Part shown: positions 15,001 through 21,000 of the stretch, piece by piece | Numbering within the stretch: position 1 is the first letter of the stretch | Layout: the number at the start of each line of letters is the position of its first letter | NCBI GenBank assembly: GCA_016928955.1 | Contig: JAFGJV010000010.1 | Span: 1 to 64,000, forward strand | DNA from: Spirochaetales bacterium | GTDB taxonomy: Bacteria; Spirochaetota; Spirochaetia; Treponematales; UBA12059 | Length of the DNA: 64,000 nt | Direction: 5' to 3' | Made by a program: the position numbers

Positions 15001-18000
15001 CCGGTATATGGTAGGATACGTTGAGGCTCAACTCCGTATTGCCGGACACCATTTCAAGCACGCCGCTCTCAACGGAATTTTTGTCACGGTACGGCACAAG
15101 GACCAGCATGCCGGGCCCGGAGCTGCTCGAGCCTTCGGGCACCATATACAGGGCAAATACCAGCCGCTTGCCCGCATCCACGGCCTCAAGAAGCGCTTTG
15201 AGTTTGTCCATCGCCTGCGCGTGCTCGGGGGCGTCTCCGCGGAGCACGCGCCGGATTTCGGCCAGCTCCGGGGACGCGTCCATCAGCCCGGACGCTTCCA
15301 GGAACGAGACGGCGTTCTTCACGAACAGGCCGGTATTGTCAATGCTGACCACCATGGTGGCCCCGGCCGGCAGGGCGCGCAGGGGATCCTGCACATCCGC
15401 AGCTCCGGACAGCAACACCAGGCAAAAAAGCCCAAAAATCGCACTAAAAGATTTTCTTAACATGACGGCTCCTCGCTACCACTCCGGACTCTCGGGCTCC
15501 TGGCCGGGCAAGTCCGGGTTTACCAAGAAAATAGCGCGGAATTGGGGGTTTTGGATACCGGGCGCACCAGCCCACACGCCTGCGCCCGTTGCGCGCGCGG
15601 CTGTTCGGCGCTAGGATGAACGTCGGCTGGCGGAACCGCACGGGTTCCCCGGGCCGCGTCAGCAGGAAGGAAAAGCGCCATGACCAAGAGGATCGACGAC
15701 GACACCATAGAAAAGACCGTCAACGCCATAACGGAGGCCGGGCAGCCGGACTGCCGGGACCGGGCCTTGGAGGGCGTGCGCTGCGCGGCCTCGTACTGGA
15801 GGGAGGAGGACGGCAGCTCGGACGAATTCTCCGCTTTTTGCGTCCGCCACTTTGCCTGCTCCGAGCGGGAGCGAGACGCGCTGTTTGGCCGCCTGGAAGC
15901 CCTGTCAGAGGTCCTGTACGGTTCCATGCTGGCCATAGGCAAGCAGCTTGAATGGGGCGTGCACGTGGACCAGGGGCCCCTTCTGCCCGCGGACGACATC
16001 CTTTCGGCATGGTCGCCGGGCGCCCACCTGTCCGACGACCTCTTTGGCAACAAGCTTGCCTTTGTCATCCACCTGAACTTTCCCTACCGGAGCCTCCAGC
16101 GCAAGCTCAAGGAAGGTCCGTCCTGGACCCGCAGGCAGTGGGCCGAGACCCGCCTGGGCGACACCCTGACAGAGCGCGTACCGGCTGACGTGTCCCAGCG
16201 CCTGGCCTCCGCCTTCTCGGCCGCCCAGAACTACATCATGGGCTACAACCTCTATCCGGCCGCCCTGCGCGACAACGGCGACGACGCCCTCTTTCCGGAG
16301 GACAAGCGCCTGCTCATGCACTGGAACATGAGGGACGAGATCAAGGCCCAGTACGGCAGACAGGACGCTACGCGGCGCCAGCGCCTGTTGTACGCGGCCA
16401 TGGAGCGCGTGGTTGACGGCGGCATACCCCTTGAGGCCATCGATACGGCCAGCCATCCGTGGAATCCGTCCAAGCAGTCGACCCAACCTGAAGGCAACCG
16501 CCGTTACGAATTCATGCTGGATATTTTCAGGGCCGAGCGCGGCCTGGACCAGTGGTGCCCGGACAATCCCAGCCTGGTGGCCCGCCGTTTCAACGTGGAC
16601 CGCGAAATACCGGAAAAGGACGTGGAGCGGCTCTTCCATGAGCTGTTGTCGTCCCCGGCCTTCGGACGAGCCGCCAAACTGGTGTCGTCCCGCCTTGAAC
16701 GCCCCCTGGAGCCCTTTGACGTGTGGTACCGGGACTTTGAGGAAGGCCAGAAGCCGGACGAGGCCGAGCTGGACGCCCTGACCCGCGCGCGCTACCCGGA
16801 CGCCCGCGCCTTCAAGAACGACATACCCCGCATCCTGGACGTCCTGGGCTTTGACAAGGCGGAAGCCGCCTGGCTGGCCGAGCGCATAGAGGTGGACCAG
16901 GCCAGGGGCTCGGGGCACGCCATGCCGGCTGCCATGCGGTCGGACAAGGTGCGCCTGCGCACCAGGGTCCCCAAGGCGGGCATGGACTACAAGGGCTTTA
17001 ACATAGCCTGCCACGAGCTCGGCCACAACGTGGAGCAGGTGTTCAGCCTCCACGGCATGGACGAGTACTTCCTGGCCAGCGTGCCCAACACGGCCTTCAC
17101 GGAGGCTTTTGCCTTTGTGTTCCAGGCGCGGGACCTGGCCATACTCGGCCGGGACGACGCGCCAGTGGGGCCGTCGGTGCTGGCCGACTACTGGGCGAGC
17201 TGCGAGATAGCCGGCGTGGCTCTGACGGACATGGAACTGTGGAACTGGATGTACGCCCATCCCGACTGCGACGCGCGCGCGCTCAGGGAAGCGGCCATGT
17301 CCATAGCCCGGTCCGTGTGGAACCGCTATTTTGCCCCGGCCTTTGGCGTACGAGACGCCCTTATGCTGGGTACCTATTCGCACATGATCGAGCACGCCAT
17401 GTACCTGCCGGATTATCCGCTCGGCCACATCATATCCTTCCAGATAGAGGCGGCCATGAAGGGAAAATCGGTCGGCTCACAGATGGGGCGCATGTGCCGC
17501 CTGGGGCGGCTGTCGCCCAACCAGTGGATGCGCCAAGCCGTGGGCTCGGACATATCGGTGGAACCCATGCTGACGGCGGCTCTGGCCGAGCTGAGCGCCA
17601 AAGGTTTTTAACAGCTTTCTGTCCGGGAGGGCAACCCCGCTCGGGTTTCCCTCCCGGCCCCACCCTTCCTGAGCAAGAGCATCGAGTTTTCCAACATCCT
17701 GGTCAACCTGCATGTTCATGCACGCTTGAGCATAAACCCCAAAAACGCCCTCGCTCCGCTTCTCAGTCCCCGTCGTTCCTGACTATATTGGTAAGGCCCC
17801 GATCCCAGGGGCCGTCGGGCGGGCTCCTAGCCGGTCTGACGCGACTAGACGCCGCCGTTGGCGGCGGGGCCTCCACAAGCCCATCGATCTTTTTCCCACC
17901 CTACCCCGAGTTCCGCCGCCCTACAGCCTGAGCAGATGGCCATGGGCCGGAACCGATGGGCTGGTGCCGAAAGGCGCCAACCTCCCGCGTTTGGAAAGGA

Positions 18001-21000
18001 GTACGGGTCATGTACGATTCCCTCATTCTTGGGGCGGAGCCATCGCCGGCCCTGCCACCCAACGAGCCGGTCAAGGCTTACGCCCCCGGCTCTCCCGAGC
18101 GCTTGGCCCTGGAGGCCGAGCTCAAATCCATGATGGCCAACCCACCGGAAATCCCCTTGGTCATAGGCGGCAAGGAGGTGCGAACCGGCCGTCTGCGCGA
18201 CATCCGGGCGCCCTTTGACCACAGCCTGGTCCTTGGCCGCTGGCATGAGGCCGGCGCGGCCGAAGCGGCCATGGCCGCAGACGCAGCCGCCAAAGCGGCC
18301 ACTGACTGGGCCCGGACGCCGTATAGGGAGCGGGCCGCCGTGTTCCGCAAGGCCGCCGCTCTTATATCCGGTGGCTGGTGGAAAAAACTCGCCGCTGCCA
18401 GCATCCTGGGCCAGTCCAAAAACTACCACCAAGCGGAAATAGACGCCGTGTGCGAGACGGCGGACTTTTTCCGCATCAACCCAGCCCTGGCGGAAAGGCT
18501 CTACGCCGAGCAGCCCCGCTCTGACGAATTCGAGACCAACATCATGGACTACCGGCCGCTGGAGGGCTTTGTATACGCGGTCAGTCCTTTCAATTTTACG
18601 GCCATAGCGGCCAATCTTCCCAGCGCGCCCGCCCTGATGGGCAACGTGGTGGTGTGGAAGCCCGCGTCCACCTCGGTTCTGTCCAATTGGTACCTGGCCC
18701 AGCTGTACCGGGAAGCTGGCCTGCCCCCCGGCGTCATCAACTTCTTGCCCGGCGCATCCAGGGACATCACGGCCGCCCTCATGGCCCGGCCGGACCTTGC
18801 CGGTATCCACTTTACCGGTTCGACCGCCGTGTTCAATTCCCTGTGGAAAACGGCTGCGGAAAACCTGTCAAGCTACCGCGCCTATCCCCGCATCGTGGGC
18901 GAGACCGGGGGCAAGGACTTTGTGTTCGTCCACCCGGACGCCGACCTTGAGGCCGCCGTCACTGCCTGCGTGCGCGGCGCCTTTGAGTACCAGGGACAGA
19001 AATGCTCGGCCGCCAGCCGCCTGTACCTGCCTCGTTCCCGCAAGAAGGAATTCATGGACCGCTTCCTGGCAGAGCTCAAGGCGGTAAAAATGGGCTCTCC
19101 GCTGGATCCGTCAAATTTTGTCAACGCCGTCATAGACAAAGGCGCGTTCGACACCATAGGCGCTTATGTGGACCGGGCCAAGGCCAACCCTTCCTGCTCC
19201 ATCATGGCCGGAGGCTCCCGCGATTCGTCCACGGGCTGGTTCGTGGAACCCACGGTCATCATGACCGAGGATCCCAGGGCCGAGCCCATGGTAGAGGAGA
19301 TCTTTGGCCCCGTGCTCACGGCCTACGCCTATGACGATTCGGACCTGGACGCAGCCTACCGCCTGGTGGACCAAGGCGCGCCTTACGCCCTGACGGGGGC
19401 CGTGTTCGCCCGCGAACGGGCGGACATAGACCATGCCCTGGTAGCCCTGCGCAACGCCGCCGGCAATTTCTACATCAACGACAAGCCCACGGGCGCCGTA
19501 GTGGGCAGGCAGCCCTTTGGCGGAGCCAGGGCGTCTGGCACCAACGACAAAGCGGGTTCCTTCCTCAACCTGGTGCGCTGGACCAGCCCCCGGGCCATCA
19601 AGGAGAACATGGCCCCGCCCCGCGACTGGCGCTATCCCTTCCTGGGTACATAAAATTCCTGTCCGGGAGGGCAACCCGCCCCGGGTTTCCCTCCCGGCCC
19701 CACCCTTCCTGAAGCCGTCATGCCATCCACAGTCCCAGGCCCGGATTGCGTATAAAATAGAAATCCTCACCATCCAGGGCGTTCCACCCTTCGCGCAGGC
19801 GTGCGGGGTCGTACCGTCGCGTAAGGATGCCCGGGTCGGCCCACTCGTAGCCCACGCTCTCCAGCTCGTCCTTGGATAAGCCGGACGCGTACACCACCCG
19901 GAAGCGGCCTTCCGTAGAGCCGTGGACCAGGTGGGCGGCCCCGGCCAGGTCGTCGGCCAGCTCGCCTGAGTCCACCAGGGCCCGAACGCTGTCCGTGCCC
20001 CGGTAACCGTATCTCCGTATGGTCGCGTCTATGGCCGGGTCCTCGCCAAAGCAGTCCACGCCTGGCGCAAGGATCACCAGGGTACCGCCGTCAGCCATGG
20101 CCAGCCGGGTGCGGTATATGGCTTTGTTGCCAAGCCAGGTGGAGCGGTACTCGGCGGGATCCAGCCACACCAGCGCCGTGCCCGGCTTCCGCTCCAGCTT
20201 GGTCACGTTCACCTGGGCTGACAGGGCCGCGGCATGCTCAAAGGGCCGCCGGTCAAAGCCCGTAAAGAAACCCCTGGTGGCCAAGCCGCCTGAGCCGTCC
20301 GGACCGATCACGGTCAGCGCGTAGAGTATGGGCATGTCGGAGGCAAAGTGGGCGGACGCGTAGTCCAGCACGGCGCGTACCGGCGTGTCCACGCGCCCGA
20401 GCGTCCTTTCTATGCCGTACGCCGCTCCCAGCCAGTGGGAACGATCGATGGCCTCCTTGCCTCCAACGCCAACAAACACGTTCTTGCTGTGGTTGGCCAT
20501 GCCCACCACCTCGTGCGGCACCACCTGGCCCAAAGACAGGATCAGGTCAAAGTCCCCGTCCACAAGCAGGCGATTGACCTGGGCCGGCCAGGAAAAAGCG
20601 CACGCTCCCTCGGAAACGCCGCTGACAAAGGATCCGGGCACGGTGCCCAAGGTGACCGTGTCATGGCGCCAGTCATGCGGCAGGAAAAGGCGCTCGGGTA
20701 CGCCTGGGAAAAAGCGGCGTATGTCCTCGGCGTCCAGGGGCCGGTGCGTGCCCAAGGCGGGCATGACGGCGGCCAGGGCGCTGCCATAGTGATCATAGGC
20801 GGCCTTGAGGAGTACTCCGGCCTTGGAATGGGCCCGTGTGCCGTCCGGCGGCAGGGCCAGCACCTTCCGTCGCTCGCCAAGGCTTTTCAGAACTGATACA
20901 AAAGCTGCCGCCAGCCTTGCGTCGTCCACATGTTGCTCCCGCCCGCCAAGCGAGCTGTATCCGCGCGTGTCGTCCATGGCAAAACTATACCACGCGTTGT

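Follow-up and report, generated by a model that had tools for sequence, protein, structure and literature searches.

A P3-less Moco/Tuco riboswitch leading pruA suggests a cofactor-gated isoenzyme switch in spirochaete proline catabolism

Analysis of a 64,000-nucleotide stretch of a Spirochaetales genome (the window; contig JAFGJV010000010.1, positions 1 to 64,000) revealed a P3-less Moco/Tuco riboswitch as the leader of pruA, which encodes an NAD-dependent P5C dehydrogenase. The genome under study is called G000, other G and L numbers are relatives' genomes or loci, and C numbers are contigs. The anatomy and covariation of the RNA, profile-based gene identities, the co-occurrence of an operator, gene order and co-distribution make it likely that in proline catabolism the leader acts as a cofactor-gated switch between isoenzymes, like the B12/MetE case, which implies a tungsten glutamate-semialdehyde:ferredoxin oxidoreductase.

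According to this model, P5C/glutamate-5-semialdehyde would arise from proline via an archaeal-type PDH1-like flavoprotein complex, from ornithine (RocD) and, in many relatives, from hydroxyproline (HypD). Its preferred oxidant would be a two-subunit class II tungsten oxidoreductase (WOR), WorS plus the 721-aa WorL encoded on C47, and the reaction would give reduced ferredoxin usable by the Rnf complex, a presumable energetic motive. With the metal-loaded pyranopterin (probably Tuco) in ample supply, the cofactor would bind the P3-less aptamer and stabilise P1, which would bury the Shine-Dalgarno sequence and turn translation of PruA off, and when it is short the same switch class would free PruA together with tupABC/wtpABC uptake and the moa genes. 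PruA would be made only when the tungsten enzyme for the same step cannot be built. It is also fairly probable that a widespread class II WOR clade is the tungsten glutamate-5-semialdehyde:ferredoxin oxidoreductase and main P5C oxidiser of many peptide-fermenting anaerobes, and that the NAD isoenzyme came under silencing by Tuco riboswitches on at least two to three occasions (through Shine-Dalgarno sequestration for spirochaete PruA, through termination for PruA and RocA of Clostridia).

The pruA gene and its leader

The genome-wide survey's note had called the gene (g01010) a P5C dehydrogenase, and this identity holds. Its TIGR01236 score lies above the equivalog cut-off (Table 1; P5C dehydrogenase group 1, ALDH4-like), its nearest solved relatives are P5C dehydrogenases (4IDM, E 2e-169), and the GETGGKD, QKCSA and PFGGARASGTNDK motifs align to 4IDM (catalytic Glu and Cys, anchor loop). 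The gene is probably monocistronic, the next one on the ORF map being convergent. The only promoter-like site within 17550-19800 is the sigma-70-like one (shuffle mean 0.3), and a TATATT-like box lies at the corresponding place in G001, G038 and G041.

Concerning the aptamer, the profile match (55.8 bits against a gathering threshold of 36) spans model positions 1-135 with the P3 columns empty, and the MFE fold of 17895-18015 contains P1, P2, P4 and P5 and no P3 (z -1.71, modest alone), so that both the riboswitch and its missing P3 were confirmed as first described. The conserved junction nucleotides, the GNRA loop and the receptor-like bulge are all present, and the 4-nt junction in place of P3, found in 20/20 pruA leaders, assigns them to the P3-less subclass. 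The Shine-Dalgarno sequence does overlap the 3' strand of P1 and is separated from the AUG by 7 nt, a placement shared with the tupA leaders of the family and with E. coli moaA (PMC2408646). An expression platform in cis is found both here, as the Shine-Dalgarno sequence within P1, and in the Clostridia copies, as a hairpin and U-run. In a longer fold including coding sequence, the Shine-Dalgarno sequence is also predicted to pair with the start of the pruA ORF, and folding with longer context around the leader gave no clean ON state.

Table 1. Features of the pruA locus in the window
Feature	Position	Strand	Evidence
57-nt palindromic repeat copy 1, just 3' of upstream gene, outside switch	17616..17672	+	93% identity to copy 2
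Sigma-70-like promoter TTCTCA, 18 nt, TATATT; inferred leader start	17760..17789	+	sequence scan
Leader palindrome/hairpin CCGCC-GTH-GGCGG	17852..17864	+	invariant in 13 leaders picked for carrying it
P3-less Moco/Tuco riboswitch aptamer RF01055	17892..18017	+	profile match, MFE fold, covariation in 20 leaders
Aptamer P1	17899-17907 with 17998-18007	+	profile match and fold
Aptamer P2	17910-17953	+	profile match and fold
Aptamer 4-nt junction replacing P3	17954-17957	+	profile match; same in all 20 leaders
Aptamer P4, GAAA loop 17969-17972	17958-17983	+	profile match and fold
Aptamer P5	17984-17994	+	profile match and fold
Shine-Dalgarno AGGAGU, overlaps P1 3' strand (expression platform)	17997..18002	+	sequence; AUG at 18010
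pruA, NAD-dependent glutamate gamma-semialdehyde (P5C) dehydrogenase, 547 aa	18010..19653	+	TIGR01236 727.9/613.6
57-nt palindromic repeat copy 2, directly after pruA stop	19656..19712	+	93% identity to copy 1

The CCGCC-GTH-GGCGG element occurs on 13/27 pruA loci; as a second aptamer it was rejected, with no covariation and seven mostly unrelated sites in G000. Repeat copy 2 shows no intrinsic terminator score, and it is possible that it serves as transcript end or stabiliser of the pruA mRNA. A mobile-element boundary is unsupported for this repeat, which has two complete copies plus a partial one elsewhere and no transposase in sight. Contigs of four sludge RNA runs from one study span pruA and its neighbours at a flat, DNA-like depth.

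Recurrence of the leader and the other RF01055 copies

RF01055 is present in 39/41 relatives and pruA in 26/41. Of 27 pruA loci, G000 included, 20 have an intact leader, one a degenerate one (G020) and five none (G002, G003, G006, G009 and G010), and one is cut at a contig end, a pairing that recurs more strongly than had been claimed. In the alignment of the 20 leaders, 93.2% of cells are paired and two-sided changes occur at 15/31 pairs, figures inflated by the relatedness of sequences that are not independent; 0/500 shuffles were equally high and slid controls reached at most 49%. The alignment argues that the leader is under selection. The covariation spans the genus of G000 and eight other genera, with P5 and the CC/GG receptor pairs nearly invariant and hence little informative. 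No such leader RNA was found on 80 metagenome loci of pruA homologues, a weak negative because these loci come without WOR status and the model used, R1, is family-biased.

R1 was built from the pruA leaders of the family, which it scores at 91-127 bits by construction. A recognisable subtype on a cofactor-free gene could speak for a variant aptamer with a changed ligand (P5C, proline, glutamate or NAD(H)), unrelated to the cofactor. Such a change is very improbable, since the junction core (CGAG, CC-GAU-GGG, CCUCCC, GGAAAGG) equals that of the tup/wtp leaders, the Clostridia copies are canonical with a terminator-type platform, and substrate control apparently comes from a separate GntR operator.

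The pruA leader had been described as the only Moco-motif riboswitch above threshold, which is wrong: a second, P3-less copy lies upstream of wtpA (C9:17927-18083(-), 42.5 bits). The C50 copy is sub-threshold as stated (35.5 bits, cut-off 36), but its operon is not mod/moe/moa; its first gene is TupA-like (223.7 bits, under the 400 cut-off, with a TTTS motif), followed by tupBC-moeA-moaA-moaC-mog. As the Shine-Dalgarno sequence is in P1 and the start codon inside the Rfam match in both pruA and most tupA leaders, the pruA leader has the same wiring as the uptake genes; in the WOR41-like operon the start codon is about 30-40 nt further 3'.

Regarding the metal, the survey's note had linked the P3-less form to tungsten. 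The 20 pruA leaders fit this, but the marker is loose in the family, a P3-like hairpin being seen in about 10/25 tupA leaders (rough script; 17/67 rows unparsed). Since leaders with and without P3 are not neatly divided between targets and G000 holds, alongside its TupA-like, WtpA and three AFOR genes, four xanthine-dehydrogenase-family (XDH) enzymes, Moco is a possible ligand. Moco, metal-free molybdopterin or either metal form, instead of Tuco alone, would leave the isoenzyme logic unchanged, and WtpA, the sole ModA-like match in G000, is under a P3-less copy; the link between P3 and tungsten is a correlation only (PMC2408646). Even so, we regard this as rather unlikely, because the 20 pruA leaders and the three Clostridia leaders are all P3-less, the linked enzyme is from the AOR family, and P3-less switches of E. 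limosum control tungsten genes (PMC11725836).

The candidate tungsten enzyme and its genomic context

A profile search bore out the three AFOR_C genes reported for G000. As alternative enzymes only one of them is implicated, the 721-aa WorL (C47:21375-23540); the AFORs on C45 and C55 were read and are unlinked, the operator survey having covered the C47 type. By sequence, WorL and the adjoining 4Fe-4S subunit gene (worS) form a class II WOR, with an AFOR large subunit beside a small-subunit gene. The T/E/Y/H second-shell residues and the four Cys are present, and another residue takes the place of the Asp that precedes the fourth Cys. The best structural match of WorL is FOR, by a small margin. 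At the positions of FOR Arg481 and Arg492, which have a presumed role in FOR, all 79 parsed loci encode an invariant Arg and Lys. The active-site columns have 73% mean identity across phyla, and the clade shares no more than 20-27% identity with solved WORs. RnfC scores above its cut-off in G000.

Several genes of this pathway share an operator, CTGATATATCAG, in relatives. With at most two mismatches within 400 bp (background 4/328), it precedes worS-worL in 16/20, pruA in 13/20, the genes of a PDH-like (proline-dehydrogenase-like) complex in 14/21 and gntR-hypD in 24/30 cases in GntR-bearing genomes; in genomes without GntR the figures are 0/8, 0/6, 1/8 and 0/6. Before rocD it was found in 1/24 GntR-bearing genomes, which puts rocD outside the regulon. 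This evidence comes from relatives, because G000 has no GntR and only a site with three mismatches at worS. The HypD-like protein of the relatives stays under the NF043068 cut-off (1026.6 vs 1100), with the next family far lower (583) and E 1.6e-259 to 6VXC. The PDH beta subunit, whose gene occurs in operons with pruA, has as best solved match 1Y56_B (E 6e-44), deposited as 'sarcosine oxidase', which we take to be PDH1 beta.

Gene order adds to this picture. The PDH-like genes lie beside pruA in four other Spirochaetia without this WOR and directly 5' of worS-worL in 7/80 named loci, and the WOR occupies the operon slot held by pruA in other spirochaetes. Moreover, worL and a P5C dehydrogenase gene are neighbours at loci of spirochaetes, Bacteroidota and Clostridia (G018, L231, L252, L278 and G332). 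A PutB-type proline dehydrogenase near the WOR in five Bacteroidales loci was counted as no more than a single weak event, as these belong to one clade, with the gene about 4.8 kb off and unrelated genes between. Altogether, genomic context suggests a C47-type WOR that acts as a glutamate-semialdehyde:ferredoxin oxidoreductase, a role proposed here.

The same OFF switch could operate with a partner that is not dedicated, broad-range AORs or molybdenum XDH-family aldehyde oxidoreductases clearing semialdehydes with PruA as general backup, and the 721-aa WOR working on a neighbouring substrate (aminoadipate or glutarate semialdehyde) or as a reductase. Most characterised WORs are broad detoxifiers (PMC13328260), G000 has its four XDH-family enzymes, an ALDH7-like gene adjoins pruA and the WOR in L278, and a proline gene lies within 6 kb in just 16/80 named WOR loci, five of them weak. 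We nevertheless judge this improbable given the operator on WOR and P5C genes and not on rocD, the exchange of pruA and WOR in one operon slot, and an active-site conservation that suits a fixed substrate.

The distribution of the switch was also followed into Clostridia, where WOR loci directly follow PDH-like dehydrogenase genes in 17/24 cases and no P5C dehydrogenase of either type was found in 18/23 WOR-positive genomes. As a test of the prediction, the switch is on P5C dehydrogenase genes in 3/5 WOR-positive cases (G194, G527 and the RocA-type G332) and in 0/8 WOR-negative ones, counts that are small; in WOR-negative Spirochaetia it is on pruA at 0/9 loci. The three Clostridia copies are canonical RF01055 (66-73 bits), and the switch stands there on two P5C dehydrogenase subfamilies (PruA, RocA), only in genomes with this WOR. 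No WOR match was found in the switch-bearing G007 and G033 (83% and 87% complete). The switch is not obligatory where both enzymes coexist: pruA is unswitched in the five relatives named above, the leader is degenerate in G020, and the switch is also missing in L231, L252, L278, G410 and G552.

These data also bear on hitch-hiking, whereby pruA was inserted behind the switch of a tungsten operon, leaving an RNA that is vestigial or acts for genes further downstream. The leader decay in G020 and the position of pruA between worL and tupABC-moeA-moaA in G018 would suit it; however, in G018 a second switch belongs to tupA itself, the downstream neighbour is convergent in G000 and, after the RocA-type gene, in G332, the covariation reaches across genera, and two enzyme subfamilies carry the switch in another phylum, which makes this extremely improbable. 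The shared operator, the operon-slot exchange and the Clostridia distribution thus lend comparative support to the translational OFF wiring and isoenzyme logic first put forward.

Comparison with known systems

B12-independent isozymes under cobalamin riboswitches (PMC3766115) are a close parallel. There, presence of the cofactor represses the cofactor-independent isoenzyme, as proposed for pruA, but the RNA class and cofactor are different and both isoenzymes are characterised, whereas the cofactor-dependent partner of PruA is predicted. Examples of such isozymes are metE and nrdAB. With the RF01055 RNA of E. coli moaA (Regulski et al. 2008, PMC2408646) the pruA leader shares the P1-P2-P4-P5 fold, the GAAA loop with receptor-like bulge and the conserved junction, and with that class also the translational OFF arrangement and the P3-less subclass; the targets known for it serve uptake or biosynthesis or are enzymes that use the cofactor, while PruA is cofactor-free. 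The available parts of that paper and its supplement name no P5C or aldehyde dehydrogenase as target; the paper states that direct cofactor binding to the moaA RNA was not demonstrated, and speculates that Tuco may repress a Moco enzyme for which there is a Tuco-dependent counterpart (S. wolfei sulphite oxidases). In E. limosum, P3-less RF01055 RNAs with translational and terminator platforms likewise control tupABC and other operons, but the targets (WOR1, tupABC, two Fe transporters and focA) include no NAD-dependent alternative enzyme (PMC11725836).

On the enzyme side, class II WORs such as PfASOR and CbGOR resemble the C47 pair in the worS gene beside worL and in the second-shell residues (PMC13328260), and P. 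furiosus FOR, the top fold match of WorL, was solved with glutarate bound (PMC12096430); the low identity of solved WORs to the 721-aa clade sets them apart. The accessible text of the 2026 WOR classification makes no mention of proline or semialdehyde and gives a defined physiological role for just 5/92 clades (PMC13328260). GAPOR and GOR are ferredoxin-linked enzymes in place of an NAD enzyme, like the proposed WorSL. A tungsten AOR and a phenylacetaldehyde dehydrogenase reportedly form a pair in anaerobic phenylalanine metabolism (Debnar-Daumler 2014); there too, a tungsten AOR would share one step with an aldehyde dehydrogenase that uses NAD(P), in another pathway. The literature searched, in which names written with a colon may be missed, contained no isoenzyme switch of this kind.

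If the reading of the WOR clade is true, a widespread clade would gain a specific, assayable substrate, and anaerobes, many without a recognisable P5C dehydrogenase, would turn proline, hydroxyproline and ornithine into glutamate by a route that yields reduced ferredoxin. The role of the Moco/Tuco riboswitch would widen from supply control to isoenzyme choice. A method of general use also offers itself: where a P3-less switch controls a cofactor-free enzyme, that enzyme may point to the reaction of an unknown tungstoenzyme. Furthermore, with leaders on pruA, tup and wtp, a single genome supplies a natural set of RNAs for asking whether P3-less RNAs sense the tungsten cofactor.

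The P3-less leader of pruA in this genome and its family

The Rfam scan bore out the genome-wide survey's note in placing an RF01055 (Moco/Tuco riboswitch) aptamer with empty P3 columns before pruA, the NAD-dependent P5C (pyrroline-5-carboxylate) dehydrogenase gene, at 17892-18017 (+, 55.8 bits). RF01055 is the sole Rfam family above threshold within the window. P1, P2, P4 and P5 are formed in the predicted fold of 17895-18015, and the Shine-Dalgarno sequence that had been assigned to P1 was found there, with AGGAGU (17997-18002) overlapping the P1 3' strand and the AUG 7 nt on. 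This arrangement is described as repressing in the available part of PMC2408646. The identity given to pruA also held, with a 547-aa product that scores above the TIGR01236 cut-off and can be aligned over its full length with P5C dehydrogenases of solved structure; the gene after it is convergent. By every testable feature, the RNA belongs to RF01055 and to its P3-less subclass.

The claim that this is the only above-threshold Moco-type copy in the genome does not hold, given that a second one (42.5 bits) precedes wtpABC on contig C9. The copy on C50 does score 35.5 bits as reported, but the operon there is tupABC-moeA-moaA-moaC-mog and not mod. P3 is missing from all three copies. The P3-less form had been linked to tungsten; the absence of P3 stands, but as a tungsten marker it is loose in the family (the UBA12059 relatives), where tupA leaders are mixed. 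According to a rough script, 10 of 25 tupA leaders and 15 of 17 WOR41-like operon leaders contain a second hairpin, with 17 of 67 rows unparsed and at least two miscalled. The accessible text of PMC2408646 ties P3 loss to tungsten by correlation only. Since the marker is loose and the genome encodes four XDH-family enzymes, the ligand metal of the family switch could be either tungsten or molybdenum. In this genome, the DMSO-reductase family is unmatched and ModA has no hit that passes the cut-off.

The recurrence of RF01055 in the family extends to 39 of 41 relatives. pruA is present in 26 of these (27 of 42 family genomes with this one), and its reported pairing with RF01055 recurs as an intact leader at 20 of the 27 pruA loci. 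Only the 3' half remains in G020, the leader is absent from G002, G003, G006, G009 and G010, and the locus of G005, counted among the 27, is cut. Across the alignment of the 20 leaders, 93.2% of cells are paired and two-sided changes occur in 15 of 31 pairs, covariation scores that are inflated by relatedness. None of 500 shuffles reached the pairing score, and slid controls gave at most 49%. The junction nucleotides are the same in pruA and tup/wtp leaders, and this speaks against a different ligand for the former.

Concerning other leader features, position 17902 is T in the window and G in contigs from three sludge runs, a change that by inspection relocates the bulge in P1 without loss of pairing. 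In 13 of 27 pruA leaders, the aptamer is preceded by an invariant CCGCC-GTH-GGCGG hairpin (17852-17864) and a RUCUUU box (17886-17896), with no covariation among these 13. The pruA genes on G009:C16 and G010:C165 (loci L036, L060 and L432) share a conserved GC-rich leader after an upstream terminator, in which neither an Rfam match nor a Moco RNA was found.

A common operator and the tungsten oxidoreductase

A palindrome, CTGATATATCAG, is located at the -10 region of many family pruA promoters. Exact copies also lie upstream of a ferredoxin-like gene and its AOR, a GntR/FCD gene that has a HypD-like glycyl radical enzyme after it, an Xaa-Pro peptidase accompanied by an oligopeptide transporter, and the PDH1-like (proline-dehydrogenase-like) alpha/beta pair. 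The operator was counted with up to two mismatches within 400 bp, for at most 30 loci per gene, and loci with less than 100 bp upstream were dropped. Among the loci listed from GntR-bearing genomes, it was found at worS-worL (16/20), pruA (13/20), PDH-like genes (14/21), gntR (24/30) and rocD (1/24). Among those listed from genomes without GntR, the counts were 0/8 for worS-worL, 0/6 for pruA, 1/8 for PDH-like genes and 0/6 for a fourth set, and the background was 4 of 328 other upstream regions. Judging from gene content, the metabolite common to the operator-bearing genes would be P5C/glutamate semialdehyde, and the operator appears to name the tungsten partner of PruA, the AOR orthologous to C47:21375-23540 of this genome. 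This class II tungsten oxidoreductase (WOR, or WorSL with its 4Fe-4S subunit) has orthologues in 36 of 42 family genomes, and a PDH-like gene is present in 40 of 42. The position of its WOR among named records places the organism with the spirochaetes; a WorSL orthologue also occurs in Alkaliphilus transvaalensis (L260). The PDH-like pair, RocD, ProC and RnfC are all encoded in this genome, in which HypD was not matched. The GntR gene has been lost from it, so that control here may rest mainly on the riboswitch.

The WOR clade is strongly conserved and keeps the AOR second-shell residues. Its predicted model (pLDDT 85) has as best structural match, by a small margin, FOR, the tungsten aldehyde oxidoreductase of P. 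furiosus. An Arg and a Lys (Arg541 and Lys551) are invariant in the clade at the positions of FOR Arg481 and Arg492, which we take to be glutarate-binding residues. FOR was solved with glutarate, and glutaric semialdehyde is its proposed substrate in the sections available of PMC12096430. Proline and semialdehyde go unmentioned in the available sections of the 2026 WOR classification (PMC13328260).

Distribution outside the family and proposed mechanism

In a named-record survey of the best 80 of at least 720 WOR loci, PDH-like genes are directly 5' of WOR in seven (six Bacillota, one Cloacimonadota) and pruA adjoins WOR in four (two spirochaete, two Bacteroidota). In five related Bacteroidales among these 80, a PutB gene 4.8 kb from WOR was counted as one weak event. 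Among 150 other Spirochaetia, nine have pruA, four of them in an operon with PDH-like genes; none of the nine has WOR, and none of the nine loci has RF01055. In Clostridia, WOR was found in 23 of 399 scored genomes, a PDH beta gene lies within 1.5 kb of it at 17 of 24 loci, and neither type of P5C dehydrogenase was found in 18 of the 23. Thus, one operon slot holds pruA in some Spirochaetia and worS-worL elsewhere, the pattern that marks non-orthologous displacement. A PAS-AAA-HTH sigma-54 activator was also observed 5' of the PDH-like/WorSL operon in four Bacillota loci (L261, L264, L277, L284).

If the switch serves the PruA-WOR pair, it is expected on P5C dehydrogenase genes where WOR is present. 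PruA went unmatched in four of five genomes with the PDH-WOR operon. In the remaining one, G194, pruA is preceded at a distance of about 280 nt by a P3-less RF01055 (68.1 bits), and the leader has a hairpin and U-run. In the Clostridia sample, to which G194 belongs, two of four WOR-positive genomes have the switch at pruA, compared with none of seven WOR-negative ones. In a comparison of two RocA-type genes, that of WOR-positive G332, divergent from worS-worL, carries a P3-less switch (66.3 bits) with a terminator-like hairpin, and that of WOR-negative G465 has none. The switch is missing where both enzymes are present in five family members, at loci L231, L252 and L278 and in G410 and G552, and two incomplete switch-bearing genomes have no WOR match. 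Therefore, it is nearly confined to WOR-bearing genomes but not obligatory there, on small counts from genomes that lack phylogenetic independence.

Considering the RNA anatomy, the gene identities and the co-distribution observed, we regard a cofactor-gated switch between the PruA and WorSL isoenzymes as likely. Concerning cofactor binding, direction, metal, substrates and energetics, we infer that the cofactor-bound aptamer would close P1 and block pruA translation, directing flux via WorSL to ferredoxin and Rnf. With the cofactor in short supply, the Shine-Dalgarno sequence would be freed and the NAD enzyme made along with the uptake systems and the moa gene products, and in most relatives GntR would add substrate control over both enzymes. 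Such a switch resembles the cobalamin switches on B12-independent isozymes described in the available part of PMC3766115, and the known Tuco regulons in the accessible text of PMC11725836 comprise uptake, WOR1, iron transport and focA. Neither a switch on a P5C dehydrogenase nor the proposed WOR function was found in the open-access literature, subscription papers being outside this coverage.

Other RF01055 loci and features of the window

In G012 (C380:87-226; L022, L423), a P3-less RF01055 resembling the pruA leaders is followed by a 17-codon ORF, which overlaps the beginning of a gene for a 594-aa [FeFe]-hydrogenase (Pfam). This enzyme may be a further pterin-free substitute controlled by the switch. 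A subtype with a U-A pair in P5 recurs (e.g. L017/L425, L007-L011, L028, L029) before an operon that encodes a solute-binding lipoprotein of 475-500 aa together with a protein carrying a partial Oxidored_molyb domain, and that is a candidate for pterin-cofactor uptake or handling. P3-containing copies (e.g. L087/L426, L083, L089) precede a TAT-signal 4Fe-4S gene and a 708-aa AFOR (YdhV/WOR41-like); the ORF starts 30-40 nt past P1, and the wiring of these leaders may differ from the OFF type. Locus L298 has two Moco-type RNAs (5835-5953 and 8673-8791), one of them directly before a WOR gene of the 721-aa clade.

Further features of the window, with positions and remarks
Feature	Position	Strand	Remark
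96-nt sequence, two copies	2082-2177 and 40099-40194		90% identical
643-aa ORF	15680-17611		HELGH (HExxH) motif and downstream Glu
57-nt palindromic direct repeat	17616-17672 and 19656-19712		93% identical; 3' ends of upstream gene and pruA
Nickel-pincer (LarA-family) putative hexonate epimerase gene	19718-21121	-	Convergent with pruA

The product of the 643-aa ORF, which gave no Pfam or NCBIfam match, is probably a zinc peptidase. The 57-nt repeat has one partial copy on C6.
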